Part shown: positions 595-48,553 of the stretch, piece by piece
Layout of the letters: the number at the start of each line of letters is the position of its first letter
How positions within the stretch are numbered: position 1 is the first letter of the stretch
Assembly: GCA_965243355.1 (NCBI GenBank)
Contig: OZ251547.1
Span: forward strand, 2,596,479 to 2,660,478
From: Dehalococcoidia bacterium
Lineage (GTDB): Bacteria; Chloroflexota; Dehalococcoidia; Lucifugimonadales; JADFKI01
Reading direction: 5' to 3'
DNA: 64,000 nt
Notes under the pieces: model-generated
The model's input: the letters and a program-made list of their open reading frames with translations, nothing else
Database searches by the model: none
What the model was told of the DNA's origin: nothing
Translations under genes and position numbers: made by a program

Positions 595-1467
595 ATGACC
601 ACTCAGACCGCAACAACCCAAACCGCCATCATCTACCCAGAATCGGACGGTCAGCCCATGCCCGACGGAGAATATCAATTCCCCATACACTCAAGCGCAT
701 ACTCCACGCTCCGCGTTCACTTCCGCCACTCCCCCGATGTTCGCGTCAACGGCAACACCTTTCTCTACTATGTAGAGGGCAACCCTCATATATCCGTATC
801 CCCCGACTGTTATGTAGCTACGGGCTTGTCCCCCGAGCAGCAGGAAAACATAAACCGCAACAACACCTACCGCCTGTGGGAAGTGGGCAAGCCGCCCGAC
901 TTCGTGATGGAGGTAGCGTCCTACAGCACAAAAAACGCCGACCTTGTGGCTAAGCGCGAGCTGTACGCAAGCTTGGGCATAAGCGAGTATTGGCGCTACG
1001 ACCACAGCGGCGGCGACCACTACGGCGAGCCATTGGTAGGCGAGCACCTAGTCGATGGCGAGTATCAGCCCTTGCGGATGAATGAGGACGACGACGGTCG
1101 CATCTGGGCGCGCAGCGACGCGCTGAACCTAGACCTATACTGGGACGACGGCGCTCTGCGCTTCTGGGATCCCGTCGCCCAAAAGTGGCTACGCAACCAC
1201 GAAGAGGATCACGACGGGCGGCTAGAGGAACGCGCCGGCCGCCTAGCAGCCGAATCACGCGCCAACCAAGAGCAAGCCGCCCGCGTAGCGGAACAGACCG
1301 CGCGTGAGATAGCCGAATCCCGCGCCGAGCAAGAGCAAGCCGGCCGCTTGGCAGAGCAAGCCGCGCGTGAAGTCGCCGAATCCCGCGCCCAAGCCGCCGA
1401 GGCCCGCGCCGCCGCTCTCGAAGCCCAACTTCGCCAACTCCGCGGCAACACCAACCCCTCGCCCTAG
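595..1467 (+). CDS. Uma2-family endonuclease (DUF820, PD-(D/E)xK-like) with Ala/Arg/Glu-rich coiled-coil tail
   Basis: 290-aa ORF with an AGGAGG RBS 8 nt upstream. Family hallmarks: YPESDGQPMPDGEYQ, SPDCYV, PDFVMEVASYST, EYWRYD. The last ~90 aa are AESRA/EQAAR-type low-complexity repeats. Confidence 0.8.
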   Translation: MTTQTATTQTAIIYPESDGQPMPDGEYQFPIHSSAYSTLRVHFRHSPDVRVNGNTFLYYVEGNPHISVSPDCYVATGLSPEQQENINRNNTYRLWEVGKPPDFVMEVASYSTKNADLVAKRELYASLGISEYWRYDHSGGDHYGEPLVGEHLVDGEYQPLRMNEDDDGRIWARSDALNLDLYWDDGALRFWDPVAQKWLRNHEEDHDGRLEERAGRLAAESRANQEQAARVAEQTAREIAESRAEQEQAGRLAEQAAREVAESRAQAAEARAAALEAQLRQLRGNTNPSP

Positions 1468-1478
1468 GAGCCACCACT

Positions 1479-2195
1479 ATGCCCGCTCACTCCGCCCCCA
1501 AGTCCATTGCGAAACCCACCATCTACTACCCCGACACCGACCACCAACCAATCCCCGACGGCGAATATCAAGCGCCCATTTACAGAAAAGTCGTAACCAC
1601 GCTGGAAACCCACTTCAACAAAACCCCCGGCGCGCATGTCAACGGCAACGTATTCATATACTACGAGGAGGGCAATCCCCGAAAAACAATAGCCCCTGAC
1701 TGCTACGTCGTCTTCAATCTCACCGATAAGGCAGTTCAATCCCTATCCCCGCAGGGCTACAACACCTACCTAATCTGGGAAGTCGGCAAACCCCCCGAAT
1801 TCGTCTTGGAAATAGGCTCGCCCAGCACAAAGCGATCCGACCTCACCACCAAACGCGCCATCTACGCAAGCATCGGCGTATCCGAATACTGGCGCTACGA
1901 CCAGACCGGCGGCTCATTCTACGGCGAACCGCTTGTAGGCGAGCGCCTAGTCAACGGCGAGTATCAGCGCCTTCCCCTAATCCAAGACGAGGACGGCGTA
2001 TGGGCATACAGCCCCGCGCTGAACCTACTCCTGTACTGGGATAATGGCGAACTGCGCTACTGGGATCCCGTCTCCAAAGAACGGCTACTCAACTACAAAG
2101 AGGCACACGCCGCCCGATTAGCGGCAGAAAGCCGCGCCGCCAAACTCCGCGCCGCCCGCCTTGCCGCCGAAACCCGCGTCCAAGCCGCCCGCTAA
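1479..2195 (+). CDS. Uma2-family endonuclease (DUF820) with short Ala/Arg-rich tail
   Basis: 238-aa paralog of the preceding gene: YPDTDHQPIPDGEYQ, APDCYVV, PEFVLEIGSPST, EYWRYD. AGGAG RBS upstream. Confidence 0.8.
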   Translation: MPAHSAPKSIAKPTIYYPDTDHQPIPDGEYQAPIYRKVVTTLETHFNKTPGAHVNGNVFIYYEEGNPRKTIAPDCYVVFNLTDKAVQSLSPQGYNTYLIWEVGKPPEFVLEIGSPSTKRSDLTTKRAIYASIGVSEYWRYDQTGGSFYGEPLVGERLVNGEYQRLPLIQDEDGVWAYSPALNLLLYWDNGELRYWDPVSKERLLNYKEAHAARLAAESRAAKLRAARLAAETRVQAAR

Positions 2196-2205
2196 CCCCC
2201 TGCAT

Positions 2206-3204
2206 ATGCTCCCCGGCAAGCTCCCCCCAGACCTCCTCTCCCGCATGCTCAGCGGCATCCCCGCGCATGACCCGCGCGTCATCCTAGGCGCCCGCCCCGG
2301 CGAAGACGCCGCAATCATAGACATCGGCGACCGATACCTCGTCGCCAAAACCGACCCAGTCACATTCGCCACCGACCTAATCGGCTGGTATATGGTGCAA
2401 GTCAACGCCAACGACCTCGCCGCTATGGGCGCAACCCCCCGCTGGCTCTTGGCGACCCTGCTGCTGCCGGAGCGCGCATCCCCCGACCACGCCCAAGCCA
2501 TCTTCGCCCAAATACTGGACGCCTGCGCCGAGCTGGACATTACCCTAATCGGCGGCCACACCGAAATCACCTACGACCTGCCTCGCCCCATCGCCGTTGG
2601 CGCGATGCTCGGCGAGGCGGCGAAAGACCGCGTAGTCCTCACATCCGGCGCAACGCCCGGCGACGCAATCATCCTAACGCAAGGCATCGCCATTGAGGGC
2701 TCATCCATACTCGCCCGCGAGGCCGCCGCCGCGCTCGCCGCCGCAGGCCTATCCCCCGACCTAATGCGCCGCGCCCAAGACCTGCTATTCGCGCCAGGCA
2801 TCAGCGTAGCCAAAGCCGCCGCCATCGCCTGCGACATCGGCGTCAACTCTATGCACGACCCCACCGAGGGCGGCCTAGCCACCGCCATCCGCGAGCTGGC
2901 TACCGCCGCCAACATAGGCGTCGCCATCCGCGCCGAAAGCATACCCGTCCTGCCCGAATGTCGCGCCATCTGCAACGCCCTAAACCTAGACCCGCTTGGC
3001 TTAATCGCATCCGGCGCCCTGCTCGCAACCCTGCCGCAAGATCGCGCCGCCAACCTCATAGCCGCCCTGCGACAAGCCGGCATCCCCGCCGCCCAAATCG
3101 GCAGCGCAACACATCCCGCCGACGGCCTAACCCTCACACGCGGCAGCGCCAGCCACCCCCTCCCCGAATTCGCCCGCGACGAACTAGCCCGCTACTTCGC
3201 CTAA
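2206..3204 (+). CDS. AIR synthase-related (PurM/HypE-like superfamily) protein
   Basis: The track ORF 2161..3204 overlaps the upstream gene, so I place the start at the internal ATG 2206 (MLPGKLPPDLL). PurM-fold motifs present: GEDAAIIDIG, AKTDPVTF, VNANDLAAMGATP, LIGGHTEI. There is no SelD GxGC/UK motif and no HypE C-terminal Cys. Confidence 0.65.
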   Translation: MLPGKLPPDLLSRMLSGIPAHDPRVILGARPGEDAAIIDIGDRYLVAKTDPVTFATDLIGWYMVQVNANDLAAMGATPRWLLATLLLPERASPDHAQAIFAQILDACAELDITLIGGHTEITYDLPRPIAVGAMLGEAAKDRVVLTSGATPGDAIILTQGIAIEGSSILAREAAAALAAAGLSPDLMRRAQDLLFAPGISVAKAAAIACDIGVNSMHDPTEGGLATAIRELATAANIGVAIRAESIPVLPECRAICNALNLDPLGLIASGALLATLPQDRAANLIAALRQAGIPAAQIGSATHPADGLTLTRGSASHPLPEFARDELARYFA

Positions 3205-3443
3205 CCCTGCCTTAATGCTAACCCCCGCCTTGCCGCCAACCTAACCTTTCGCGCCAACCCGCGTTGTATGACGCATAGCCATCCAACACAAATATCTATC
3301 GCGCCGAACCCGTTGTATCCCACACGACTATCGCAACACAGCCATCACGCACAGCCAGCGCGCAACCCCGTTGCCGCCCGCATATGTGTTATCCTTGACG
3401 CAACCAACTTTGCCTGCCCCCAACCTCAGGAGCCAAAAATCCC

Positions 3444-4940
3444 ATGCGCCTCAAATCCCGCCGCGCCCTCAGCCCCGCCATCCTGCCAACCCTGCTAAGC
3501 CTGATTGCAATCGCCGCCCTGCTAATCGCCTGCTCCGGCAATGCGCCCGCCGCCGCGCCCACCGCGCAACCCGCCGCGGCTCCTCAGACATCCGCGCCCA
3601 CACAAGCGCCGCCCCCGCCTACTGCCGCGCCCGCGCAACCCGCGCCCACCACTGCGCCCGCTCCCACGCAACCACCGCCTACGCCCGTTCCCACATCCGC
3701 GCCCGCCGCTCAGCCTGCTCAGCCCACGCCTACGCAAGCGCCGACTGCCGCTGCCACTACCGCGCCCGCTACTCAGCCCGCTCCCACTCAGCCGCCGCCA
3801 TCTGCGCCCGCTGCATCCACTAGCGGCCCCGCCATATTCACCCTAGGCGAAGGAACTATCGCCCGCTACAAAGTAGAAGAAGTTCTAGCCCGCACCGGCT
3901 CCTGGACTGCCACCGGCGAAACCACAGAGGTAGCCGGCCAACTCGCCTTTGACGCCGACGGCGCGCTAATCCCCGCCGAAAGCCGCGTCATCGTGCAGGC
4001 TGGCACGCTAGCAACCGACAGCGATAGGCGCGATAGATATGTGCGCGAGCGAACCCTCAACGCCTCGCAATACCCCGAAATCGTCTTCAGCCCAACCGCC
4101 ATAGACGGCTTGCCCGCGCCCCTAACCGCCGCGCAGGGCAGCATCGACTTCACAATCACCGGCGACCTAACCATCCGCGACCAAACTCGCCCTGTCACAT
4201 GGAGCGCCACCGCCGACTTCGCCGCCGCCACAATCAGCGGCGCTGCCAGCGTGGAATTCACCTTCGCCGATTTCGCTATGGACAAGCCCAGCGTCCCCAT
4301 CGTCCTCAGCGTAGAAGACACCATCCGCCTTGAAATAGACTTCACCGGCAGCCTATCCCAACCCTCGGCGGACGCAGACGCAACTCAGCCCTCCGACGCC
4401 GATGACACCACAAACGCCGCCGCATTCGTCAACACGCTCGGCGACGAAAACGCGCCCGTAACCATCATAGAATTCTCCGACTTCCAGTGAATCCACTGCC
4501 GCAACTTCGCCCTCGGGCCAGGGCGACAAATCATTGACGACTATGTCCACACCGGCAAAGCGCGATTCGTCTATCGCCACTTCATCGTAGTCGGCGAAGA
4601 ATCCATAATCGCCGCAATGGGCGCCGAATGCGCCGCCGAGCAGGGCAACTTCTGGCAATTCCACGACGCCCTGTTCGAAAACTGGCAAGGCGCGAACCAG
4701 GGCCACTTCCGCTTCGCCGCCCTGCAAGGCTTCGCCGACGAGCTCGGAATGGACGCCGCCCAATTCGAATCCTGCATGATAAGCGGTCGCGCATTCGAGC
4801 GCGTCCGCGCCGAACACCTAGACGCCGAAAGCCGCGGCGTCAACGGCACCCCCACCGTCCTAATCAACGGCGAGCGCGTAGGCGGCCCCTACGAGGCATA
4901 CCAACAAGCCATAGACGCCGCCCTAGCCGCAACGCAATGA
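3444..4940 (+). CDS. Lipoprotein with YceI-like domain fused to DsbA-like thioredoxin domain; in-frame TGA (4488..4490) at first CxxC position, candidate selenocysteine
   Basis: Track ORFs 3444..4490 and 4617..4940 are in the same frame (both starts are divisible by 3), and 4491..4616 has no stop. N-terminal part: signal peptide plus lipobox LIAC, then a P/A/T-rich linker. Middle: YceI-like block (GTIARYKVEEV...DSDRRDRYVRERTLNASQYPEIVF...FTITGDLTIRDQTRPV). C-terminal part: APVTIIEFSDFQ-TGA-IHCRNF...GKARFVYRHF...AECAAEQGNFWQFHDALF...GVNGTPTVLINGE, which is DsbA/BdbD-like. Confidence 0.7.
4507..4526 (+). promoter_or_regulatory. Candidate bacterial SECIS hairpin downstream of the in-frame UGA
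   Basis: 7-bp stem TCGCCCT/AGGGCGA with a 6-nt G-rich loop CGGGCC. It begins 17 nt after TGA 4488..4490. Confidence 0.5.
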
Positions 4941-5007
4941 GCGCATCCCCGCGCGCCCGCGCCAAATTTCCATTGACATAACGCCCAAAGTTTAGTAGCA
5001 TTGCGTT

Positions 5008-5041
5008 GGGCGGTTAAGACGTGCCGCTGTCTTAACCGCCC
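5008..5041 (+). terminator. Strong hairpin after the YceI-DsbA gene (terminator-like)
   Basis: Perfect 13-bp stem GGGCGGTTAAGAC / GTCTTAACCGCCC with an 8-nt loop, 68 nt after the stop at 4940. It is followed by a C/T-rich tract, not a clean U-run. Confidence 0.5.
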
Positions 5042-6500: not shown

Positions 6501-6752
6501 CTATCCGCCAAACAAATCGCGCCGAACCTGTCCGCTAGTAATCCCATTGTGCGCCGCTACATACCCCAAAATATCGCTCAATGTGCCGACGCGCACGCTG
6601 CGATGGCGCGGTATCAGCACTCTGCGCCGCGCGCCTTGAACATCCAAACCCATCGTTATATGGCTGCCGCGCTGACGAACAAAGCGGTAGCCGTAATGAC
6701 GACGCAGCAACGCTGCCAATTCGTCGCCCGATAAGTCGCGCGGCAGACTCAT
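6501..6752 (-). CDS. hicA: HicA-family mRNA interferase toxin
   Basis: LSGDELAALLRRHYGYRFVRQRGSHITM...IPRH..VRVGTLSDIL matches the HicA/YcfA pattern. It overlaps the upstream antitoxin gene by 4 bp. Confidence 0.8.
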   Translation of the reverse strand: MSLPRDLSGDELAALLRRHYGYRFVRQRGSHITMGLDVQGARRRVLIPRHRSVRVGTLSDILGYVAAHNGITSGQVRRDLFGG

Positions 6753-6964
6753 ACGGCGGTTACTTCTTCCTTGACCAGCTTCAGCAGCTGCAGCCGTATG
6801 GTTTCGGGCTTCTCTTCGTCATCGTCAAAGTAGCACAGCACGGCATCCCGCACCATATATTCCAGATCCGCCCAGTCATCCCCCTGCGTGAATATCCCAT
6901 ACCCCACTGCCCTGGCGTTGTAGCCGCCCTCCTCAGCCTCCGTAACCTCAAACACCATCTCCAT
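6749..6964 (-). CDS. hicB: HicB-like antitoxin
   Basis: I place the start at the internal ATG 6964 (MEMVFEVTEAEEGGYNARAVGYGIFTQGDDWADLEYMVRDAV), which has an AAGGAGAG RBS upstream. This is a HicB N-terminal fold-type sequence. Confidence 0.65.
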   Translation of the reverse strand: MEMVFEVTEAEEGGYNARAVGYGIFTQGDDWADLEYMVRDAVLCYFDDDEEKPETIRLQLLKLVKEEVTAV

Positions 6965-7216
6965 AAAACTCTCTCCTTGTGTCTTTGTTTGCTTTTCTAT
7001 TATATGCGCTACAAGCCCCCTTGCCAACACCCCCACAACCCCCTCCTCGCCCCTAACGCTTGACAATCCCCGCTCTGCTACATTACCATTCGCTACAATT
7101 ATCACAATCGGGTGATAGTGCCGCGCGTTAGGCAGACATATTCGCCTTGCCTGCGCCTATGCGTTATCCGAAACACGGCGTACAGCGCGCCGAAATCAGC
7201 GAGAGAGGTTGGTGAA

Positions 7217-9373
7217 ATGAAAAGGTCAGCGTTGCTACTCGCAGCGGTGTTCGCGCTCGCCGCAGTCTTTGCGGCAGCCTGCGGCTCTCAGCCCGCCGCC
7301 GAACCTGAAGTCATCACCGTCGTGGAGACGGTCGTGGTGACCGAAGAAGTGGTTAAAGAAGTCGAAGTCGAAAAAGTGGTGGAGAAAGAAGTGGAAGTGG
7401 AGGTGGTGAAAGAGGTAGAGGTGGAGGTGGAGAAAGAAGTCGTCAAGGTGGAGCGCATCGAAGTTCCCGTTGACAGGGTGGTCGAGGTGGAGAAGATCGT
7501 TGAGAAAGAGGTGGTCATCACCAACTTCAACGAATCCCCCGACCTGGCGGCCGAAGTAGCCGCCGGCAACCTGCCGCCCGTCTATGAGCGCCTGCCCTCG
7601 CAGCCGATGATAATCCCGCCCATTGGCGACATCGGCCAGTACGGCGGCGAAGTGCGCCGGTTCTACCTAGGCCCAGCGGACGGCTGCAACTTCTTCCGCC
7701 TGTCCCGCGCGTCCCTAGTGCGCTTTTCCCAGAACGGCCTGTCGTTCATTCCCTCCGTCGCCAGGGGCTGGGAAGTCTCCGACGACGGGATGGAGTGGAC
7801 ATTCTTCCTGCGCGAGGGCATGAAGTGGTCGGACGGCAACGATTTCAACGCCGACGACTTTATCTGGCAGTACGAAAATGTCATCCTCAACGAAGACCTC
7901 AACCCCAACCCGCCTTTCTTCTTGAAGATTGGCGCTAAGGTCGGATCCATATCCAAAGTGGACGACACCACCGTCCGGTTCAGTTTCCCCGTGCCGAACT
8001 TCCTGTTCCTGGAGATAGTGGCGCAGGCGGACGAGGCATGCTACGGCTCTACCCGCAATGTGCCTTACGCGCCCTCCCACTACATGCAGCAGTTCCACCC
8101 GGACTTCAACCCGGACGTGGTCGCTGAGGCCGAGGCTGAGGGTTTCCCCAGCTGGACGGCGTACTACGACGCGCAGACGCAGTACAACCTGAACCCCGAC
8201 AAGCCCACCCTAGCGCCGTGGCGGTTCACAAACCCGCTCGGCGACCAGGTTGTCAACACCGAGCGCAACCCGTATTTCTGGGCGGTTGACCCGGCGGGCA
8301 ACCAGCTCCCCTACCTGGACGGCATCCAACTGACGCTGGTTGAAAACACCGAGCTCGGCTCCATTCGCGCCATTCAGGGCGAGATTGATATGCAGGGCAG
8401 GCACATCCAGCTCGACCAGTTCACCACGCTCAAGGACGGCGAGGGCGCGGGCGGCTACACCGTCAAGACTTGGCCCACATTCGCCGGCTCCGACATAGCG
8501 TTCTTCTTCAATATGAGCCTGCCGGGTCCCACCGGCGGCGCGATACGCACCAAAGAGTTCCGCCAGGCGCTCTCGCTGGCGATTGACCGCCCGTCAATAC
8601 AGCAGAGCCAGTTCCTGGGGCTTGGGCAGATACGCCAGGGCGTTCCCTCGCCCGCGCATCCGCACTATCCGGGCGACGACATCGCCCAGTTGCGGACCGA
8701 GTACGACCCCGACGCGGCAAGGGCGATGCTTGACGCGCTGCCCGCGCCTTTCGGCATGGACGACTCCAGCGACTGCGACGGCGGGCCCTGCCGCACATAC
8801 GACGGCGAGCGCATTGACATGACCATCACGGTCACCGACGCATTCGGCACATGGCCGGACGCCGCGCTAGTGGTTGGGCGCGCGTGGGACGCGGTGGGCG
8901 TCAAGGCTACCGTCAACCAGACCTCGCGCACGGTTCACTTCAACCGCTGGCAGACCAACGAATGGGCGGTTATGGTCTGGAACGAAGACACCGCCGGCTT
9001 TACATTCAGCTCCATCAGCAAGCGCGCGCCTGAGGGCATAGGCACATTCCACGGGCCCGGCTGCGCCGCGTGGCTGATAGACACCGAAAACCCGATAGCC
9101 TTCGAATGCCCGCAGGAATCCCTGGACCTGCTTGAAATGCACAAGCGCGGCCCCGGCTTGCCTGAGGCTGAGCGCAACGCGCTGGGCAAGGAAATCTACA
9201 AGACAATCGTGGAAAACCAGTACAACATCGGCATCGTCGGCCTATCCCCGATGGTTCAGGGCGTCATCGTGGTCAACAACGACCTGAAGAACGTCCCCGA
9301 CACGGCCGGCAACGACTGGCCGCTCCGCACCCCCAACACCGGGTTCCCGGAGCAGTGGTACTACGACAGGTAA
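7217..9373 (+). CDS. ABC transporter substrate-binding lipoprotein, family 5 (peptide/nickel, DppA/OppA-like)
   Basis: Start at ATG 7217 (MKRSALLLAAVFALAAVFAACGS, with lipobox). A long V/E/K linker is followed by a family-5 SBP body. Two permease and two ATPase genes lie immediately downstream. Confidence 0.85.
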   Translation: MKRSALLLAAVFALAAVFAAACGSQPAAEPEVITVVETVVVTEEVVKEVEVEKVVEKEVEVEVVKEVEVEVEKEVVKVERIEVPVDRVVEVEKIVEKEVVITNFNESPDLAAEVAAGNLPPVYERLPSQPMIIPPIGDIGQYGGEVRRFYLGPADGCNFFRLSRASLVRFSQNGLSFIPSVARGWEVSDDGMEWTFFLREGMKWSDGNDFNADDFIWQYENVILNEDLNPNPPFFLKIGAKVGSISKVDDTTVRFSFPVPNFLFLEIVAQADEACYGSTRNVPYAPSHYMQQFHPDFNPDVVAEAEAEGFPSWTAYYDAQTQYNLNPDKPTLAPWRFTNPLGDQVVNTERNPYFWAVDPAGNQLPYLDGIQLTLVENTELGSIRAIQGEIDMQGRHIQLDQFTTLKDGEGAGGYTVKTWPTFAGSDIAFFFNMSLPGPTGGAIRTKEFRQALSLAIDRPSIQQSQFLGLGQIRQGVPSPAHPHYPGDDIAQLRTEYDPDAARAMLDALPAPFGMDDSSDCDGGPCRTYDGERIDMTITVTDAFGTWPDAALVVGRAWDAVGVKATVNQTSRTVHFNRWQTNEWAVMVWNEDTAGFTFSSISKRAPEGIGTFHGPGCAAWLIDTENPIAFECPQESLDLLEMHKRGPGLPEAERNALGKEIYKTIVENQYNIGIVGLSPMVQGVIVVNNDLKNVPDTAGNDWPLRTPNTGFPEQWYYDR
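7301..7522 (+). repeat. Purine-rich coding low-complexity repeat (V/E/K linker)
   Basis: 74 aa made almost only of V, E and K: VVKEVEVEKVVEKEVEVEVVKEVEVEVEKEVVKVERIEV... Confidence 0.9.
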
Positions 9374-22518: not shown

Positions 22519-24534
22519 TTAAGGTTGCGCTATCTCCAACTCAAGCGTGAAATCGCCGACTGCCTTGGAATACCACGTCGTTGCCTCTATCGTATAAGCC
22601 CCCGCCCCCAAACTCCCGCTTATCGCGGCCGAGTACGCGGTAGCCGCGCCCGCTTGCCGGTTGACCGCCCCGCCCCTTCCTGCGCCCTCCAGCAGATACA
22701 GATACGGCGCAACGTCCGCGGACGACAGCGTAATGCTCACATCAGACGCAGCCGCCAGCGTGAATGTATAGAACCGAGCATAGTAATCGTCATCATTAGG
22801 CGGATTGGCGCTAATGCAACCCGCCGCCCACCTGCCACTCACGCTGCCACTGCCCGCAAGCCGCTCAGTGCAAGCGTCGTCTGATGTTCCCGCAACGCTC
22901 GTAGGCGTAGGCGACAGCGTTGCCGTCGGCTCTATCGCCATCACCGGCGTTGCCGTCGGCGTGTGCGTAGGCGTAGCCGTTGCCGCGCCTCCATCCCCGC
23001 CCTCAAGCTCCGCCACCCTAGCCACCAGCGCCGCCACGAGCCTGACTATCTCAGCGACCAGTCCACTCAGCTCCGCATCTTCGCCAACCCGCCGCTCAAG
23101 CTCATCCAACTTGCCCAGCACTTCGCCGCCCGCCCCCGGCGTCGCGGTAGCCGTAGCCGTCGCCCCCGGCACGGATGTGGCAGTCGGCGTCAGCGTCGCC
23201 ACAGGCGTTGCGCCCGGCACAGACGTAGCAGTCGGCGTCAGCGTAGTCACAGGCGTTGCGCTCGGCGTGGATGTAGCCGTTGCCGTTGCGCTCGGCGTGG
23301 ATGTAGCCGTAGCCGTTGGCGTCGGCGTTGCGGCGCTTATATCATCGCAAAACGCCAACTCTATCCGCTGCCGCTCCCAAGGCGTCATATGCGCCCGCAG
23401 AGATTCGGGAACGCACCCCGTCAACTGGTTGCCGTGCAGAAACACATAAGTGAGATTGGCGAGATTGCCCAACTCCACGGGTATCTCGCCCGTCAATTGA
23501 TTGTCCGAGAGACTCAAAAGATCGAGCCGAGTAAGGCTGCCCAACCACGCCGGTATCTCGCCCGTCAGTTGGTTGCTACTGAGATACAGCCACTCAATCT
23601 TGGAAAGGTCGCTCAACTCCGAGGGTATATCGCCCGTCAGCCGATTGACTGAGAGAATCAACTTCCTGAGATTGGCAAGCTTGCCCAACCCGGCCGGTAT
23701 ATCGCCCGTCAGTTGATTGTACGAGAGCCACAATTCCTCGAGATTGGCGAGGCTGCCCAACTCCGATGGTATATCGCCCGTCAGTTGATTCTCGGAGAGG
23801 ATCAACTTCAGGAGGCTGTCAAGATTGCCCAACTCAGCGGGTATATCGCCCGTCAGCCGGTTGTCGTGCAAATCCAACCTCACAAGGTTGGAAAGGTTGC
23901 CCAACTCCGCCGGTATTTCGCCCGTCAGTTCATTCTCATAGAGTTCCAATAACCTGAGCTTGTCAAGGTTGCCCAACTCAGCCGGTATTTCGCCCGTCAG
24001 CTCATTCGCCCAGAGCCTCACCCACTTAAGGTTGTCAAGATTGCCCAACTCCGCCGGTATCGCGCCCGTCAAGTCATTCTGGTAGAGATATAGCATCTCC
24101 AGCTTGTCAAGGTTGCCCAACTCAGCCGGTATAACGCCGTTCAAAGACTTATTCGACGGCGTCAAGCCCGTAACGCGCCCGCCCGTTATCCTTACCCCAT
24201 CGCGCCAATAAGCAATGTTTCGATCCGCCGACCAACTCAGGCTGCCCGTCGTCCCCACAAGCGCATCCTTCGCCGCGAGCAATACCGCGCAGTCCGCCAC
24301 CAACCCTGCATTATCCCCAGGGTTCGGCACGGCGACCCCATTAGAGCATTGCTCAGTGTATTGCGCCGGTATAGGCATATCCCCCACCGACGCCCCCACG
24401 TCAAACGCCCTCGCGCCGCCGCCGCCCGCCATCAGCAGCGAAACCGCTATCACACCCGTCAGCGCCACCAACGCCAGTGCGGTTGCCATCCTGACTGCGC
24501 GTTTGGACATAGACATCTTAATGCTCACTTGCAC
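22519..24534 (-). CDS. Secreted plant-type leucine-rich-repeat protein with T/P/A-rich linkers and pre-peptidase C-terminal (PPC)-like domain
   Basis: N-terminal signal/TM segment. A cap (CAVLLAAKDAL...WSADRNIAYWRDGVRI) is followed by about 11 units of the 24-aa repeat L..L..L.L..N.LTG.IP.ELG.L. After T/P/A tracts comes a C-terminal DDDYYARFYTFTL...YLYLL...YTIEATT block, which is PPC-like. Confidence 0.75.
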   Translation of the reverse strand: MQVSIKMSMSKRAVRMATALALVALTGVIAVSLLMAGGGGARAFDVGASVGDMPIPAQYTEQCSNGVAVPNPGDNAGLVADCAVLLAAKDALVGTTGSLSWSADRNIAYWRDGVRITGGRVTGLTPSNKSLNGVIPAELGNLDKLEMLYLYQNDLTGAIPAELGNLDNLKWVRLWANELTGEIPAELGNLDKLRLLELYENELTGEIPAELGNLSNLVRLDLHDNRLTGDIPAELGNLDSLLKLILSENQLTGDIPSELGSLANLEELWLSYNQLTGDIPAGLGKLANLRKLILSVNRLTGDIPSELSDLSKIEWLYLSSNQLTGEIPAWLGSLTRLDLLSLSDNQLTGEIPVELGNLANLTYVFLHGNQLTGCVPESLRAHMTPWERQRIELAFCDDISAATPTPTATATSTPSATATATSTPSATPVTTLTPTATSVPGATPVATLTPTATSVPGATATATATPGAGGEVLGKLDELERRVGEDAELSGLVAEIVRLVAALVARVAELEGGDGGAATATPTHTPTATPVMAIEPTATLSPTPTSVAGTSDDACTERLAGSGSVSGRWAAGCISANPPNDDDYYARFYTFTLAAASDVSITLSSADVAPYLYLLEGAGRGGAVNRQAGAATAYSAAISGSLGAGAYTIEATTWYSKAVGDFTLELEIAQP

Positions 24535-31353: not shown

Positions 31354-32211
31354 ATGACACGACTCGCAGGCATATTCGGCTACCCGCTGGCGCATTCGCT
31401 ATCGCCCGCGTTCCAGCAGGCGGCATTCAACCACTACGGCATGGACGCGCGCTATCTCGCGTGGGAAACGCCCCCGGACGCGCTGGAGGCTGAGGTCGCC
31501 AAGCTGCGCGGCGGCGATTTCATAGGCGCGAACGTCACCATCCCCCACAAGCGCCGCGTAATGGACTTCCTAGACGAAATCGACCCGCTGGCGCAAGCGA
31601 TAGGTGCTGTCAACACAATCGTCAAGAGCGAGGGCAAGCTCATAGGGCGCAACACAGACGCGCAGGGCTTTCTGCGCCCGCTGAAAGAGGACGCCGGCTT
31701 TGACCCTGAGGGCAAGCGGGCGCTGCTGTTGGGCGCGGGCGGCGCGGCGCGAGCGGCGGCATTCGCGCTATGCCAAGAGCGCGTGGCCACGCTCGCCATA
31801 GCCAACCGAACCCCGCAGCGCGCCGAGGCGCTCGCCGCCGAACTGCGCGGCAACGCCGCCACCACGCTATCCGCCCTATCCCTCGCAGACCCCGCCCTAG
31901 AAGACATCGCCCTCCAGTCCGACCTAATCGTCAACTCCACCTCAGTCGGAATGAGACACGGCGACGCCGAAGGCCAAACCCCCCTCTCCGGCGGCGCGAT
32001 CCCCCACGACGCCGTAGTTCTGGACATGGTCTACAACCCGCAGCACACCCCCCTGCTCGCCGCCGCCCGCAGCGCCGGCGCTCGCGCGGTCGGGGGCATG
32101 CCCATGCTCATCTACCAGGGCGCCGCCGCCTTCGAGATGTGGACCGCCAAGCCCGCGCCGGTGGAGGCGATGTTCGCGGCGGGCAACGTGGCGCTGATGC
32201 GGATGGGGTGA
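31354..32211 (+). CDS. aroE: Shikimate dehydrogenase
   Basis: GYPLAHSLSPAFQQAAF, GANVTIPHK, GAVNT, LLGAGGAARA. Confidence 0.9.
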   Translation: MTRLAGIFGYPLAHSLSPAFQQAAFNHYGMDARYLAWETPPDALEAEVAKLRGGDFIGANVTIPHKRRVMDFLDEIDPLAQAIGAVNTIVKSEGKLIGRNTDAQGFLRPLKEDAGFDPEGKRALLLGAGGAARAAAFALCQERVATLAIANRTPQRAEALAAELRGNAATTLSALSLADPALEDIALQSDLIVNSTSVGMRHGDAEGQTPLSGGAIPHDAVVLDMVYNPQHTPLLAAARSAGARAVGGMPMLIYQGAAAFEMWTAKPAPVEAMFAAGNVALMRMG

Positions 32212-33169: not shown

Positions 33170-33375
33170 ATCCTAATCCCCGCCTTTGGTTCTTTGCGTA
33201 TTAACCGCGATTATAACCGCTTACCCCCAGTATATCAAACTTGCCCCTATGCGCTATGATTATGCGGTATCATAACAAACGCAATCTAACTTCGGCGCAA
33301 ACCGCAAACCAAGCGCAAATACATCTCATTACAGCATCACACCAACCCCAACCCCCAGCGAGGCATCTCCCCCCA

Positions 33376-35136
33376 ATGAAACCCAACATCTTCCTAACCG
33401 GATTCTCAGGCGCCGGCAAAACCACCGTCGGCCGCGAGGCCGCCCGCCTGCTCGGCTGGCGGTTCGTCGACCTGGACGAGCGCATAGAGTCCGCCGCCGA
33501 AATGCCCATTGACGCCATCTTCGCCCAGTATGGCGAGCCGCGATTTCGGGCTATGGAAACCCAAGCGCTGCTCGACGCATGCCAGGGCGAGCGGCAGGTC
33601 GTGTCAACCGGCGGCGGCATTATTACGGCGGACGCCAACCGCGAGGCTATGGCGGCAAATGGCGCGGTGGTCTGCCTTGAGGCGGCGCCCGAAACGATAT
33701 ATGAGCGCGTGCGGGCGCAGAGCGAGGGTGATGAGGCGCTCGTCCGCCCTATGCTCGCCCACTCCGACCCGATGCGGCGCATCCGCGTGTTGAAAGCCCA
33801 GCGCCAATTCCACTATACTCTTGCCCACTGGACGGTTCACACCGACCGCCTATCCCCCGCGCAGGCGGCGCGCGAAGTCGTCCGCGCTTTTGACATACTT
33901 AACGATGACGGCGATACCGACGAAATATGCTACCGGGCGTATCCCAAATGGATGGAGGCGAGAGCGCAAGAAATGGCTAATTCCAACGGCGACCAAGCCA
34001 CCAATGCAACGGCGCAACAGCCCGCCAACGACCAGCCCTACGCCGCCGACCTCGCCGCGACCGTCCGCACATCTCAGGGCGACTATCCCGTATGGGTCGG
34101 ATGGGGCATCCTGGACGAGCTGGGCGAGCGCGTCAAGTCCGTCTTAGATGCGTCAGTGGCTTATGTCATCACCGACGAGGGCGTCCAATCACAGGCGCGC
34201 CGCGCGCAGTTCGCGCTGGAATCCGCCGGCATCGCCGCCCATATGTTCATTATGCCCGCCGGCGAAACGCACAAGACGCTGGAAACCGCCCAGTTCATCT
34301 ATCGCTGGCTGGCGGAGCGCAAGGCGGAGCGCGGCCATCTCGTTGTCGCGGTGGGCGGCGGCGTTGTGGGCGACCTAGCGGGCTTTGCCGCCGCAACCTA
34401 TCTGCGCGGCATGCCCCTTGCCCAAATCCCAACCAGCCTGCTCGCTATGATGGACGCATCCATCGGCGGCAAAGTCGCCGTGGATCTGCCGCAGGGCAAG
34501 AACCTAGTTGGCGCTTTCTACCAGCCCAAATTCGTGCTTGCCGATGTCAGCGCGCTCCAAACGCTGCCCCCCCGCGAGCTCACATCCGGCTGGGCGGAGG
34601 CTATCAAGCACGGCCTAATCATGGACGCCGACCTGCTCGCCGACTTCGAGCGCCGCAGCCAGCCCATACTCGCGCTTGAGCGGGACATCGCCACGAACAT
34701 CATCCGCCGCAGCGTGGCGGTCAAGGCGAACGTGGTATCCCAAGACGAGCGCGAAACGCTCGGCATACGCATCCTGCTGAACTATGGCCACACAATCGGC
34801 CACGCCATAGAATCGTCCACCGGCTACTCCCGCCTGCTGCACGGCGAGGCGGTCAGCATCGGCATGATGGGCGCGGCGTACATCGGCGAATCGCTCGGCA
34901 TGCTATCCCCCGCCGAAGTGGATCGCCAGCGCGGATTGCTCGCCGAATACGGCTTGCCCCTGTCGTTCCCCGATATGGATATTCCCGCCGTCAACGCCGC
35001 TATGCTGTCCGACAAGAAAACCGCCGGACGATCCATCCGCTGGGTGATGCTTGACGGCATTAGCAACGCCGTAACCCGCAGCGATATTCCCACAAACCTT
35101 GTGCAGGACGCGCTAAACCGACTGGCGGCGGAATAG
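33376..35136 (+). CDS. aroKB: Bifunctional shikimate kinase / 3-dehydroquinate synthase
   Basis: I place the start at the internal ATG 33376. The AroK part has IFLTGFSGAGKTTVGR and DLD. After a ~90-aa linker comes the AroB part: GGGVVGDLAGFAAATYLRG, GGKVAVDL, NYGHTIGHAIE, HGEAVSIGM. Confidence 0.85.
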   Translation: MKPNIFLTGFSGAGKTTVGREAARLLGWRFVDLDERIESAAEMPIDAIFAQYGEPRFRAMETQALLDACQGERQVVSTGGGIITADANREAMAANGAVVCLEAAPETIYERVRAQSEGDEALVRPMLAHSDPMRRIRVLKAQRQFHYTLAHWTVHTDRLSPAQAAREVVRAFDILNDDGDTDEICYRAYPKWMEARAQEMANSNGDQATNATAQQPANDQPYAADLAATVRTSQGDYPVWVGWGILDELGERVKSVLDASVAYVITDEGVQSQARRAQFALESAGIAAHMFIMPAGETHKTLETAQFIYRWLAERKAERGHLVVAVGGGVVGDLAGFAAATYLRGMPLAQIPTSLLAMMDASIGGKVAVDLPQGKNLVGAFYQPKFVLADVSALQTLPPRELTSGWAEAIKHGLIMDADLLADFERRSQPILALERDIATNIIRRSVAVKANVVSQDERETLGIRILLNYGHTIGHAIESSTGYSRLLHGEAVSIGMMGAAYIGESLGMLSPAEVDRQRGLLAEYGLPLSFPDMDIPAVNAAMLSDKKTAGRSIRWVMLDGISNAVTRSDIPTNLVQDALNRLAAE

Positions 35137-41114: not shown

Positions 41115-42167
41115 CTATTCGGCGGGGAACGCCAGGAACGGGTTGTCGTGAACGCGCGTGAGTTCAACCGAGGCGCCGGGCGATAGGCTTGGGTAGCCGC
41201 GCCGGACGCAACGCACAATCGCGCCGCCGGGTGTTGCGACGAAAGCCATCGTTTCGCCGCCGCGGAACTCTAGGGATTCCACGCGGCAATCGCCGGACTG
41301 CGTCGCCGCCACTCCCAGATCTTGCGGGCGGATCATCACGAGCAGCGCGTCGCCGTCGGATATGGCGGCGCTGTGGCAGATGAACGGCAGATCGCCGATG
41401 GCGGTTGCGGCGAATACGCCATTCGCCACGCCGGGCAGGAAGTCGCAGTCGCCCACCATCCGGGCTACGGCGGGATTGACGGGCGCGCGGTAGAGGTCGG
41501 CGGGCGCGCCGAGCTGCTCTAGGCGGCCGGCGACCATAACGCCCGCGCGGTCTGCTACGGCGAATGCCTCTTCGCGGTCGTGGGTGACCAGGATGGCGCT
41601 GATGTTTTCGCGGCGCAGTATCTCCACCACTTCCAGGCGCAGGCTGTGGCGCAGGCCGGCGTCTAGGTTGCTGAACGGCTCGTCAAGCAGCATAGCGATG
41701 GGATGCGGCGCCAGGGTTCGGGCGAGCGCGACGCGCTGCTGCTGGCCGCCGGAGAGTTCGTGCGGGTAGCGGCTTTCAAGGTCGGCTAGGCGCACTAGCT
41801 CCAGCGCCTCGCGCGCGCGGCGGCGGCGGTCGGCGGGGGATGCGTTATGCAGCCCGAAAGCCACGTTTTGCGCCACGCTCATATGCGGGAATAGCGCGTA
41901 CTCCTGGAATACCATCCCGATGTTGCGGCGCTCAGGCGGCAGATGCAGCGTTTCGGATGATACGGGTTCGGAGCGTATGGCGATTGCGCCGCCGTTCACC
42001 GCCTCAAAGCCGGCTATGAGCCGCAGCAGCGTGGTCTTGCCGCAGCCGCTTTCGCCCAGTATGGACACGATTTCGCCGGGCATCAGGCCGAAACTGACGG
42101 CGTCGACCGCAAGCGTGTCGGCGTAGCGCTTGCTTGCTTGGATGCACTCAATCAGGGGGGTAGTCAT
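41115..42167 (-). CDS. Fe(3+)/polyamine-type ABC importer ATP-binding protein (FbpC-like)
   Basis: I place the start at ATG 42167 (MTTPLIECIQASKRY), overlapping the permease stop by 4 bp. Walker A GESGCGKTT, signature LSGGQQQRVALAR, Walker B LLDEPFSNLD, plus a C-terminal TOBE-like region. Confidence 0.85.
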   Translation of the reverse strand: MTTPLIECIQASKRYADTLAVDAVSFGLMPGEIVSILGESGCGKTTLLRLIAGFEAVNGGAIAIRSEPVSSETLHLPPERRNIGMVFQEYALFPHMSVAQNVAFGLHNASPADRRRRAREALELVRLADLESRYPHELSGGQQQRVALARTLAPHPIAMLLDEPFSNLDAGLRHSLRLEVVEILRRENISAILVTHDREEAFAVADRAGVMVAGRLEQLGAPADLYRAPVNPAVARMVGDCDFLPGVANGVFAATAIGDLPFICHSAAISDGDALLVMIRPQDLGVAATQSGDCRVESLEFRGGETMAFVATPGGAIVRCVRRGYPSLSPGASVELTRVHDNPFLAFPAE

Positions 42168-43813
42168 GCCAGCGCCCTCTTTTCGCGCAGCACTAGCAGC
42201 GTCATTGGGACGGACGACATCAGGATGAGCAGCAGCGCGGGGGCGGCGGCGCGCGCGAAGAACGCCTCGGCGGAGGCCGACCATACCTCAGTGGCGAGCG
42301 TGTCAAAGTCAAGAGGGCCTAGTATCAGGGTGGCGGGCAGCTCTTTCATCGTTAGCAGGAACACAAGCGCGCCGCCCATTAGGACGCCGGGCATCATAAG
42401 CGGGGCGGTTATGCGGAGCATCACCCTGAGCGGGCTGTGGCCTAGGCTGCGCGCGGCGTCTTCAAGGCGGGGGCTGATTTGCAGCAGCGACGCCTTGACC
42501 GCGCCAAGCGCCACAGGGAAGAATAGGATGGCGTATCCGAATATGAGCAGGTAGTGGGTCTGGTAGAGCAGGCGGAAGTAGTTCGCGCCGAAGAAGATGA
42601 GCGCCAGGGCGACCACTACGCCCGGCAGCGCGTAGCCGGTGTAGCTCAGGGATTCGAGGATGCGGTTGAGGCGCGTGGGATAGCGCACAAGCAGGGTTGC
42701 CATGGCAATCGCCATCGCGGCCGTTATGACGGCGGCGGCGAGCGATACGATAAGCGAGTTTTGGGTGGCAGTCCATAGCAATAGCAGCGGCTCGCCGTTT
42801 GAGACGCCGCGAACCAGCCAGAACGCCAACACGCCCGCGGGCAGCGCGAGCGCGAGGGCGAGCGTCCCGATTATCGCCGCGATAGCCGCCCATTTCCAAG
42901 CGCCGAGCTTGGCGGCCCGCGGCTGGCGCGCCGAACCCGCGCCCGCGCGATAGTAGCGCTGACGCCCGCGCGTGTAGCTTTCCATAAGCAGTATGGCTAT
43001 CGCCAGCGCCACAAGCGCAAACGAAAGCAGCGCCGCTATGGAGCGGTCAATGGACGACTGGTATTGCTGGTATATCGTGAATGTGAATGTGTTGTAGCGC
43101 ATCAGGGATACCGCGCCGAAATCGCTGAGCGTGTAGAGCGCCACAAGCAGCGCGCCCGCCGCTATGGACGGGTTGAGCTGCGGCAGCGTCACGCGAAAGA
43201 ACGCGCTCCAAGCGCCGTGACCAAGGCTGCGCGCCGATTCGTCGGTGGCAGGGTCAAGATTGGCTACCGCCGCGCGCACGGTCAGGAACATATACGGGTA
43301 GCTGAGCAGCGTCAGAACCAGGGTCGCGCCCGCAAGCCCGTAGAAGTCGGGGATGCGCTGCACGCCAAACGCCGCCTCCAGCAGCGATTGCAGCATCCCG
43401 CGGGGGCCTAGCGCCGAGGCGTACAGGAACGCGCCCACGAAACTGGGTATTACCAGGGGCAACGCGAGTAGCACCGTCCAAGCGCGGCGCAGGGGCAGAT
43501 CCGAGCGCGCGGTCAGCCACGCGAATGGCACGGCGAGGACGGCGGACAGTGAGGTTACGCAGACCGCTAGCAGCAATGTCCTGCCAAGCGTTTCCAGCGT
43601 GCGGACGCGAAAGAACAGATCCCACGCCTGGTCGCTCGCGCTCGCGCCGCGTATCACAAGGTAGAGCGCGGGCAGGAACATAGCCGCGCCGACCAGCAGC
43701 GCGGGCAGCAATACGACCGGCGGGGGCAGAGCGGCGAGGGTAAGCCGCCGGCCTGGTAGCAGGGCAAGGCCGGCGGCTGTGAACTTGTTGGGTATGTGGC
43801 TGATTTCTACCAT
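42164..43813 (-). CDS. Iron(III) ABC transporter permease (two-module, FbpB-like)
   Basis: 549 aa with about 12 TM helices and two EAA-like loops (DESARSLG, EDAARSLG). Confidence 0.8.
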   Translation of the reverse strand: MVEISHIPNKFTAAGLALLPGRRLTLAALPPPVVLLPALLVGAAMFLPALYLVIRGASASDQAWDLFFRVRTLETLGRTLLLAVCVTSLSAVLAVPFAWLTARSDLPLRRAWTVLLALPLVIPSFVGAFLYASALGPRGMLQSLLEAAFGVQRIPDFYGLAGATLVLTLLSYPYMFLTVRAAVANLDPATDESARSLGHGAWSAFFRVTLPQLNPSIAAGALLVALYTLSDFGAVSLMRYNTFTFTIYQQYQSSIDRSIAALLSFALVALAIAILLMESYTRGRQRYYRAGAGSARQPRAAKLGAWKWAAIAAIIGTLALALALPAGVLAFWLVRGVSNGEPLLLLWTATQNSLIVSLAAAVITAAMAIAMATLLVRYPTRLNRILESLSYTGYALPGVVVALALIFFGANYFRLLYQTHYLLIFGYAILFFPVALGAVKASLLQISPRLEDAARSLGHSPLRVMLRITAPLMMPGVLMGGALVFLLTMKELPATLILGPLDFDTLATEVWSASAEAFFARAAAPALLLILMSSVPMTLLVLREKRALA

Positions 43814-47422: not shown

Positions 47423-47498
47423 TGGTACCCCTGCCCGGACTCGAACCGGGGCACACGGTTTAGGAAACCGTTGCTCTATCCTCCTGAGCTACAGGGGC
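47423..47498 (-). tRNA. tRNA-Arg (anticodon CCT)
   Basis: Manual cloverleaf: acceptor GCCCCTG/CAGGGGT, D stem GCTC/GAGC, anticodon stem ACGGT/ACCGT with loop TTCCTAA, T arm CCCGG-TTCGAGT-CCGGG, and an encoded CCA. Confidence 0.85.
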
Positions 47499-47716
47499 GC
47501 CTGAGGCTATTATACCCTAACGCGGCGCTGGGTTGCACTATTCGCGGCGCGGGTTTCGGGGCAATTGCGGGGGATTTTCGGGCGCGGGATGCCGCGTTTG
47601 GCTGGCGTATTGCCGGGGATATGCGGCGAATTTGGGGAATATGGTTTTCACGGCGCGGTTTATCTGCTATAATCACTTTGTTCGCTGGAGTGGCGATGGC
47701 GCTGAGCGCCGCGTCA

Positions 47717-47793
47717 GGGCGGTTAGCTCAGTTGGTTAGAGCGCTTGCTTCACACGCAAGAGGTCCCAGGTTCAAGTCCTGGACCGCCCACCA
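47717..47793 (+). tRNA. tRNA-Val (anticodon CAC)
   Basis: Acceptor GGGCGGT/ACCGCCC, anticodon stem CTTGC/GCAAG with loop TTCACAC, T loop TTCAAGT, and an encoded CCA. Confidence 0.85.
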
Positions 47794-47845
47794 TAAGGCG
47801 GGCGGCGCGGCTGGGTAATCTGGCCGCGCGAACAAACGGGAATGT

Positions 47846-47932
47846 GCCGAAGTGGCGGAACGGAAGACGCGCTACGTTCAGGGCGTAGTATCCTTTACGG
47901 ATGTGTGGGTTCAAATCCCTCCTTCGGCACCA
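47846..47932 (+). tRNA. tRNA-Leu (anticodon CAG)
   Basis: Acceptor GCCGAAG/CCTTCGGC region, anticodon stem CTACG/CGTAG with loop TTCAGGG, a long variable arm (TATCCTTTACGGATGT), and an encoded CCA. Confidence 0.85.
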
Positions 47933-47962
47933 ACGCAATCGCAATGCCGCCAACCGAAACGT

Positions 47963-48038
47963 GCGCTTGTAGCTCAGTGGATAGAGCGCAGCCCTGCGGA
48001 GGCTGAGGCCGTGGGTTCGAGTCCCGCCAAGCGCGCCA
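47963..48038 (+). tRNA. tRNA-Arg (anticodon GCG by manual fold)
   Basis: Acceptor GCGCTTG/CAAGCGC, D arm GCTC-AGTGGATA-GAGC, anticodon stem CAGCC/GGCTG with loop CTGCGGA, T arm GTGGG-TTCGAGT-CCCGC, and an encoded CCA. Confidence 0.75.
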
Positions 48039-48144
48039 TATGTTTATATCCCCGTAAATCCGCATCGGGCGGCAATGCAACCCCTTAGCCGATCCCCAAA
48101 TCCGCGCATCCAATATCCCGCATGCGCCCGTCGCGTTGCGGCGC

Positions 48145-48221
48145 GGGCGATTAGCTCAGATGGTTAGAGCGTCTGCTTTACACGCAGAAGGTCAGAGGTT
48201 CGAGTCCTCTATCGCCCACCA
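48145..48221 (+). tRNA. tRNA-Val (anticodon TAC)
   Basis: Acceptor GGGCGAT/ATCGCCC, anticodon stem TCTGC/GCAGA with loop TTTACAC, T loop TTCGAGT, and an encoded CCA. Confidence 0.85.
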
Positions 48222-48553
48222 TATTCCCCCGGCGGCGCTTGCGCGATAATCGCCCACCAATCCTATCGCTCACCATATTCCCCACCGGCATCCCCCGACA
48301 CCCCTTGCGCGATCCCCCCCGATTTCACCCGCGCTCGCCGCTCGCGCCCTCTCTATATCCCCTCTTATCTCAGCGTCTTGGCGCGTACATTAGCGCATTT
48401 CTCTTTTCGCATATCAGCGTATCTTAACCCCGCCGCTTATTGAATTCGCAGATGGCGGCTATGATACGATACGCCACGGCGCGTATTATTGCGTGGATTT
48501 GCCTTGCGCGGATGGCGCGCCCACGCCGCAGCGCGAAAGGAGCCTTAGCTAAG

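Follow-up and report, generated by a model that had tools for sequence, protein, structure and literature searches.

The question raised by this 64,000-nucleotide stretch of Dehalococcoidia DNA (hereafter the window) is whether an in-frame TGA at positions 4488-4490 marks the end of a gene for a YceI-like lipoprotein, or is read as selenocysteine (Sec) within a longer protein. The open reading frame (ORF) that begins at ATG 3444 runs up to this codon with the segment ...NAPVTIIEFSDFQ, giving a product of 348 residues. Past the TGA the same frame resumes as IHCRNFALGPGRQ... and stays open for 149 codons to a second TGA at 4938-4940, and the full-length read-through product would comprise 498 residues. 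A first-pass annotation made from the letters of the window alone had noted this layout, which we confirm and which goes far beyond what chance would produce, and had proposed from it a selenoprotein in which YceI-like and DsbA-like domains are fused. Having compared the locus with its relatives, we consider it very likely that 3444..4940 (+) is a single gene for a 498-residue selenoprotein, its UGA at 4488-4490 being decoded as Sec by means of a hairpin at 4507..4526; the bare prediction of a selenoprotein gene appears robust, with a confidence at least as high. That the inserted residue would be Sec rather than another amino acid is what we infer.

What the TGA replaces can be judged from relatives that carry Cys. 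When the translation was run against Pfam with the TGA (U) read as C, both Thioredoxin_4 (PF13462; E 2.5e-32, 112.8 bits against a cut-off of 23.2, residues 331-492) and DSBA (PF01323; E 5e-14, 52.9 bits against a cut-off of 25.6, residues 340-481) spanned the codon, with the β1 strand and an FSDFQ motif upstream of it and the xxC part of the active site, the cis-Pro loop and a second Cys pair downstream, all of them conserved. As a control set we scanned genome contigs with the U-to-C version of the thioredoxin domain and the pattern IEFSDFQC, which by construction finds Cys-type proteins only. The closest Cys relatives among the matches listed come from Anaerolineae, Chloroflexia and other groups; they are stand-alone proteins anchored in the membrane, with no more than 47% identity to the domain. 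They carry FSDFQ-C-P-[FY]-C, and the TGA column coincides with their first Cys in all six sequences aligned and in 16 of the 17 inspected; the second active-site Cys, the cis-Pro loop and the C396/C444 pair are common to them and to the Sec-type family. By these alignments the TGA occupies the nucleophilic position of a DsbA-type active site, which bears out its earlier placement at the first Cys of a CxxC motif.

The same codon recurs throughout the family. The read-through product was searched against 5.8 billion proteins and the best 120 matches were considered; these range from 100% down to 53% identity, each covers only 58-60% of the query, and none covers both halves, so that an annotated full-length copy was not found among them. 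All 120 gene calls end in ...[FY]SDFQ (FSDFQ in 113), one residue before the TGA codon. DNA was compared at ten loci, namely the window and nine relatives (L081-L089) chosen across the 53-100% range of protein identity, L083 being the one locus yielded by a scan of metagenome contigs. In all ten, which were independently assembled, the codon after ...SDFQ is TGA, and because pairwise synonymous divergence (dS) is ~1 these lineages are well separated. Beyond the TGA every locus holds 148-150 codons free of stops and frameshifts, up to a final stop at an equivalent position (give or take one or two codons), where five loci have TGA and the other five TAA or TAG. The ratio of nonsynonymous to synonymous divergence (dN/dS) stands at 0.17 for the YceI domain and 0.22 for the stretch leading up to the TGA, and it is about 0.26 after it. 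Bacterial selenoprotein genes are recognised in the field (PMC13188914) by, among other criteria, a TGA column that is a conserved Cys in non-selenoprotein homologues (a Cys/Sec pair) and TGA-bearing homologues whose coding sequence is preserved to either side; this locus shows both. The two checks that had been suggested at first pass, whether orthologues carry Cys or TGA at this position and whether selection persists downstream, both speak for an unbroken gene, and on the evidence of this purifying selection the downstream part is translated as a continuation of the upstream part.

Shortly after the TGA lies the hairpin (stem 4507-4513/4520-4526, apical loop CGGGCC at 4514-4519) that had been proposed as a bacterial Sec insertion sequence (SECIS) on account of its distance and loop type. 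The stem begins at the 17th nucleotide past the UGA, leaving 16 nt between them, and 23 nt separate the UGA from the loop. The constraints published for bacterial SECIS elements are an apical loop of 3-9 nt on an upper stem of 4-16 bp, a G within the first two loop positions, a UGA-to-loop distance of 16-37 nt and a minimum free energy of -7.5 kcal/mol or lower (PMC13188914). All ten loci fall within all four published constraints, the window with a 6-nt loop, a 7-bp stem, a G at loop position 2 followed by another, 23 nt and -11.8 kcal/mol. Of the 1567 TGA triplets of the window, 9 are followed by a hairpin of the same geometry whose 7-bp stem is perfect and 33 by one of equal stem energy, which puts the chance rate of a comparable hairpin at 0.6-2% per TGA.

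Evolutionary constraint on this hairpin is visible at synonymous sites. Nowhere in the gene is synonymous-codon identity higher than over the 14 codons after the TGA, where it peaks at 0.86-0.90 (gene mean 0.60, standard deviation 0.12), and the pooled proportion of synonymous differences (pS) is 0.26 in the hairpin zone versus 0.55-0.63 further downstream. In L081 and L085 the stem reads TTGCCCT/AGGGCAA in place of TCGCCCT/AGGGCGA, a compensatory change of C-G to U-A, and in L083 the closing pair has gone from U-A to U-G. The peptide encoded by the hairpin, FALGPGRQ, is near-invariant in this family and variable in the Cys relatives, the pattern to be expected where an RNA element limits what the protein can change. 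The conservation and covariation of the hairpin, another check put forward at first pass, thus turned out positively, with one compensatory change and frozen synonymous sites; by these measures the hairpin is under RNA-level constraint at the SECIS position.

Three other accounts of the TGA have to be weighed against a selenoprotein gene. The one that automatic annotation adopts takes it as a real stop, leaving a YceI-only lipoprotein and a thioredoxin remnant translated separately from an internal start. Gene callers do split all related loci in this manner, into a 'YceI' gene followed by a 5'-truncated Thioredoxin_4 ORF of 122-131 residues, and a truncated YceI product probably coexists with the full-length protein, Sec insertion being generally inefficient. 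Against separate translation, the first in-frame start past the TGA lies 43 codons downstream in the window and anywhere from codon +19 to codon +43 depending on the locus, at no conserved position, in keeping with the first-pass remark that the downstream part has no sensible start of its own. The region ahead of that start holds the invariant resolving Cys and the RFVYRHFIV strand, and codons +15 to +42 show the strongest purifying selection of the thioredoxin domain, with its lowest ratio of nonsynonymous to synonymous differences (pN/pS 0.22). A product begun at the internal start would be without the β1 strand and the active site, and a YceI-only protein would not need the β1 strand and FSDFQ, yet both are kept to the last residue; we regard this account as very improbable. 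That the TGA is a TGC-to-TGA nonsense mutation in a pseudogene, or an error of sequencing or assembly, would take one base change, and the window alone could not dismiss it. The same TGA is, however, present in ten independent assemblies at dS ~1 with 148-150 intact codons behind it, all 120 homologues stop at the same residue, and no TGC orthologue with a decayed frame was found among the sequences compared, which makes the idea scarcely credible. Taken together, the lack of frameshifts and stops, a dN/dS of 0.26, the selected codons ahead of the first start and the conserved FSDFQ contradict both a pseudogene and a separately translated downstream protein.

The remaining account accepts that the UGA is recoded and assigns it to something other than Sec: Cys delivered by a tRNA with a UCA anticodon, near-cognate read-through by Trp or Cys tRNA, or a lineage-wide change in the meaning of UGA. 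For some bacteria, a proposal exists that such a tRNA inserts Cys by way of SelB and a SECIS, and in the present case the Sec-decoding trait is itself only presumed. Stop usage also lends this account something. Among the 47 long ORFs of the window, at 61.5% GC, TAG ends 23, TAA 17 and TGA 7, and the 47 gene calls in the flanks of the relatives are similar in their usage (TAG 24, TAA 14, TGA 9). TGA is normally the commonest stop at such GC content, and finding it the rarest in this genome is odd. On the other side, TGA terminates genuine genes, including aroE at 32209-32211 (as had already been pointed out), a permease at 42164..43813 with another stop three codons later, and the present gene itself. 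In these TGA-ended genes (aroE, the permease and the 3' end of this gene) a second stop or a drop in coding signal follows just past the TGA. No other real gene of the window contains an in-frame TGA, and no further convincing selenoprotein gene was found there. Since TGA is a genuine stop elsewhere and at the end of this very gene, the recoding is local, as the first-pass annotation had maintained, and the conserved local hairpin likewise argues for site-specific recoding over lineage-wide reassignment. Position, UxxC motif and SECIS geometry are furthermore those of an established kind of selenoprotein, and we consider a non-Sec recoding improbable.

Several findings nonetheless weigh against decoding of this UGA as Sec. 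No selA, selB or selD was found with NCBIfam among the 16 ORFs of SelA, SelB or SelD size in the window and related loci, the tRNA scan and Rfam returned five ordinary tRNAs and no tRNA-Sec in the window, and the short flanks of the relatives held neither a Sec machinery gene nor a tRNA-Sec; the Sec-decoding trait is presumed on the strength of the comparative signature and because a related '(seleno)lipoprotein' family exists. The energy of the hairpin, -11.8 kcal/mol, is ordinary against GC-matched shuffles (z -0.7 to -1.7), for which reason we dropped thermodynamic stability as evidence, and Rfam gave no SECIS family match for it. The ten loci all belong to one narrow family, which makes two clusters at 50% identity, and they sort into only about four subclades. 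The compensatory change arose once, L081 and L085 being near-identical; on both grounds the covariation is supportive, not decisive. The best NCBIfam match of the protein, NF041057, is reached at 152.3 bits against an equivalog cut-off of 190, and the six Cys relatives score 127-168 with the same model. Finally, Sec insertion, lipidation, ligand and activity are all predicted from sequence.

A gene of the AIR-synthase family (AIRS and AIRS_C domains) lies upstream on the same strand, at 2206..3204 (+) of the window (listed as an ORF from TTG 2161), and is found in this position in the window and in six of the eight relatives with gene calls (L082 976..1992, L084 1822..2820 and L086-L089). It mostly adjoins directly, with one or two small opposite-strand ORF calls intervening in L082, L086 and L087; L081 and L085 have an amidase in its place. 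As a candidate SelD it was rejected: its scores are below the cut-offs for ThiL (107 versus 184), HypE (100 versus 251) and SelD (90 versus 125), and the product starts MLPGKLP... with no Cys or Sec at the position of the SelD catalytic residue. A SelD-like gene beside a selenoprotein gene is suggestive, but given the amidase of L081 and L085 it may be synteny by descent.

Read through the TGA, the predicted product has a modular layout. A Shine-Dalgarno-like AGGAG (3428..3432, +) stands 11 nt upstream of ATG 3444, and the N-terminus reads MRLKSRRALSPAILPTLLSLIAIAALLIAC... before entering a long Pro/Ala/Thr stretch. The putative lipoprotein signal peptide (3444..3533, +) has the lipobox L-I-A-C at residues 27-30, with Cys30 as the predicted lipidation site; by the pattern [LVI][ASTVI][GAS]C alone, which is how the lipobox was called, it is found in all ten loci and in 102 of 103 complete homologue N-termini (as LIAC, LAAC, LIGC or LVAC). 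It is followed by a low-complexity Pro/Ala/Thr-rich linker (3534..3827, +; approximately residues 31-128) that varies in length among homologues and has a dN/dS of 0.23. Next comes the YceI-like lipocalin domain (3828..4358, +; approximately residues 129-305), which matches PF04264 over residues 153-301 (E 1e-20, 75 bits against a cut-off of 23.7, profile positions 20-149 of 150) and resembles, in the PDB, TT1927b of T. thermophilus (1WUB, E 3e-8) as well as E. coli YceI (1Y0G). An acidic Asp/Ser/Thr-rich segment (4359..4433, +), variable in the homologue alignment, leads to the TGA-interrupted DsbA/BdbD-type thioredoxin-fold domain (4434..4919, +), the extent of its Thioredoxin_4 match being that given above.

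Within the thioredoxin-fold domain, whose PDB matches (E 1e-15 to 3e-12) are 4PWP (deposited as DsbA, E 1e-15), 3F4R and B. subtilis BdbD (3EU3), the in-frame TGA at 4488..4490 (+) would encode U349 of the active site U-I-H-C (residues 349-352). The resolving Cys352 (TGC at 4497..4499, +) is TGC in all ten loci and Cys in all 16 aligned sequences. An additional Cys pair, Cys396 (4629..4631, +) and Cys444 (4773..4775, +), is likewise Cys in 16 of the 16 aligned family members and Cys relatives and probably forms a structural disulfide. Thr469-Pro470 (4848..4853, +) belong to a cis-proline loop G-T-P-T whose T and P are invariant in the family and conserved in the Cys relatives, the cis conformation being assumed from what is known of the DsbA family. 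The true terminator would be the TGA at 4938..4940 (+), orthologues stopping at the equivalent position.

How much of this is new depends on what is already known of such proteins. DsbA-like (UxxC, COG2761/PF01323) and DsbG-like (UxxC) selenoproteins were predicted in 2005-2006, and a 2026 selenoproteome review lists both, the DsbG-like ones under NCBIfam NF041057 and as high-confidence predictions. The first-pass statement that DsbA-like selenoproteins had been reported therefore stands, with the consequence that novelty is confined to the fusion architecture. The fusion itself had been called undescribed, and we agree: YceI and lipoproteins go unmentioned in the 2026 review, and NCBIfam has no model specific to a YceI-thioredoxin fusion. 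The YceI domain together with the junction was also searched exhaustively with HMMER against 1.84 billion representatives, and the best 150 of 2,926 matches were considered. Among those best 150, only two 50%-identity clusters match through ...FSDFQ, both of them ending there, and no Cys-form YceI-thioredoxin fusion was found. All others are YceI alone, tandem YceI, YceI-HHH or YceI-dioxygenase; the long matches had been considered as Cys-form fusions and were rejected on inspection as belonging to the latter three. One family member is in GenBank, as MYE53717.1, a 'hypothetical protein' of a Chloroflexi metagenome-assembled genome. As far as these sequences tell, what is new is the architecture, in which a lipoprotein signal, a Pro/Ala/Thr linker, a YceI lipocalin and a U-x-x-C domain follow one another, together with its occurrence in the Sec form only; the kind of selenoenzyme is already known.

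The nearest known selenoproteins differ from it in instructive ways. NF041057, the 'Rcas_1661 family thioredoxin-like (seleno)lipoprotein' (matched over profile positions 74-246 of 247, and whose locus tag we take to come from a Chloroflexota member), shares the BdbD-type Thioredoxin_4 fold, the U-x-x-C with Sec in first place and the lipoprotein signal, the corresponding features here being U-I-H-C at residues 349-352 and LIAC at residues 27-30. Because the Cys relatives score as high with this model, the match places our domain in the broader BdbD/'DsbG-like' Thioredoxin_4 group and not in the curated family. The below-cut-off score indicates a sister group, not a member, and the first 73 profile positions are here swapped for a Pro/Ala/Thr linker of approximately 100 residues and a complete YceI domain. 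The DsbA-like 'form 1' selenoproteins (PF01323/COG2761, from the Sargasso Sea and genome surveys) are alike in their DsbA-type fold, UxxC, and a bacterial SECIS within the ORF with G in a small apical loop. They represent the FrnE/COG2761 branch, whereas here FrnE structures are distant (5CNW, E 4e-4) and the best Pfam match is Thioredoxin_4 rather than DSBA; a lipocalin fusion is not reported for that family.

Two further systems without a Sec codon are informative. The Cys-type extracytoplasmic DsbA proteins of monoderms (BdbD 3EU3, and 4PWP, presumably actinobacterial) and the stand-alone Chloroflexota FSDFQ-C-P-[FY]-C proteins have in common with the present domain the fold, FSDFQ-x-x-x-C, the cis-Pro loop, the extra Cys pair and a location outside the membrane. 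Theirs is Cys in place of Sec and a transmembrane-helix anchor in place of a lipobox; they lack a YceI domain, and their identity to this protein does not exceed 47%. In LcoA-BcnA, which acts in the detoxification of lipid peroxyl radicals, a cytochrome b561 is linked to a YceI lipocalin (the two being fused in α-proteobacteria) and is proposed to recycle the barrel-bound quinone, YceI lipocalins being known to carry ubiquinone-8 or octaprenyl ligands (PMC9113575). There too a YceI lipocalin at the membrane surface is physically joined to a redox-active partner. The partner is, however, a di-haem membrane cytochrome there and a selenol/thiol thioredoxin-fold domain here, the domain order is reversed, with the lipocalin N-terminal in our case, and the present protein is known from its sequence alone.

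From these parallels a working model can be put forward. The signal peptide would export the protein and Cys30 would lipid-anchor it on the outer face of the cytoplasmic membrane, the Pro/Ala/Thr linker carrying the YceI barrel and then the BdbD/DsbA-type domain with its active site U349-I-H-C352. During translation the hairpin at 4507-4526, in the role of a bacterial SECIS, would bring SelB and Sec-tRNA(Sec) to the ribosome, and ribosomes that fail to recode would release the YceI-only lipoprotein. The selenolate could then attack disulfides, sulfenates or peroxides of substrates outside the cytoplasm, forming a selenenylsulfide with Cys352, and the YceI domain would hold an isoprenoid quinone or other lipid as redox partner or substrate of the U-x-x-C centre. 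Taken as a whole, the protein would work as a selenol/thiol oxidoreductase outside the cytoplasm, and an isoprenoid quinone bound in the lipocalin may be coupled to it. The extra Cys pair is in keeping with an oxidising compartment. By analogy with the cytochrome b561 system, a quinone or an oxidised lipid may be offered to the U-x-x-C by the barrel, and would then be either the oxidant of a DsbA that works independently of DsbB or the substrate of an antioxidant enzyme of the envelope.

A more speculative reading, in our estimate rather unlikely, would make the protein a self-contained, membrane-tethered redox machine in which the barrel hands an isoprenoid quinone or peroxidised lipid directly to the Sec-Cys centre. 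In one variant the quinone would re-oxidise the selenol/thiol pair, making a DsbA that needs no DsbB or VKOR. In the other the selenol would act at the membrane surface as the reductant of a quinone, a lipid hydroperoxide or a peroxyl species, a bacterial and extracytoplasmic version of the logic of GPx4. If this were true, the lack of a Cys-form fusion would mean that the chemistry needs selenium.

The finding bears on annotation, since in over 100 public genomes, and in at least 120 gene calls, the gene is broken up into a shortened YceI protein and a thioredoxin fragment left on its own, and the curated models would not recover it, NF041057 scoring below cut-off. For biology, the fusion offers each of two poorly understood families a candidate partner: the oxidoreductase gains a lipid or quinone and the lipocalin a redox centre, paralleling the link between cytochrome b561 and YceI. 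The family is apparently present in Sec form only. It would give a Chloroflexota lineage a selenoenzyme located beyond its cytoplasmic membrane, and by implication would make the lineage dependent on selenium for redox chemistry in the envelope. How Sec is decoded is no better or differently understood for the finding.

Further observations concern the surroundings of the gene. An inverted repeat, GGGCGGTTAAGACG / CGTCTTAACCGCCC, begins 68 nt past its stop; it pairs perfectly over 14 bp around a loop of 6 nt (5008..5041, +; stem 5008-5021/5028-5041; -25.3 kcal/mol, z -4.5). CUCUCUU follows it, and a promoter-like TTGACA-17-TAGCAT stands ahead of it at 4973-5001. The window holds no second copy of the repeat, nor was it found after the gene in L081, L082, L084 or L088, and it may be a local terminator. 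A tRNA cluster Val(CAC)-Leu(CAG)-Arg(GCG)-Val(TAC) is located 43 kb from the gene in the window (47423..48221) and immediately downstream of the gene in L081 (4882..5400) and L085 (4888..5408); this difference in position shows rearrangement between subclades. Upstream of the AIRS gene, the tandem ORFs 595..1467 and 1479..2195 (+) have no NCBIfam match, and the ORFs in the same position of L084 (193..1038 and 1050..1811) are called paralogues of the Uma2-family (PF05685) endonucleases.

Elsewhere in the window, the in-frame pair 6581..7063 and 7112..9373 was considered as a second selenoprotein gene and rejected: the TGA-ended upstream ORF 6581..7063 looks non-coding, and 7112..9373 (+) is a lipoprotein gene with a start of its own near 7220. 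It encodes a peptide/nickel-type ABC substrate-binding lipoprotein (MKRSALLL...AACGS) with an unusual Glu/Val/Lys repeat linker of approximately 100 residues (VVETVVVTEEVVKEVEVEKVVEKEVEVEVVKEVEVEVEKEVV...) between lipobox and binding domain. The ORF at 33241..35136 (+) is a fusion of shikimate kinase (residues 47-219) and 3-dehydroquinate synthase (residues 282-622; TIGR01357, 367 bits), that is, a bifunctional AroK-AroB of 631 residues. Two large leucine-rich-repeat proteins are encoded at 22519..24534 (-) and 48440..51040 (+), their best NCBIfam matches being leucine-rich-repeat families of type III effectors (XopAC, XopAE and XopL), each with a score far under its cut-off; such eukaryote-like repeat proteins are a hint of life in association with a host.

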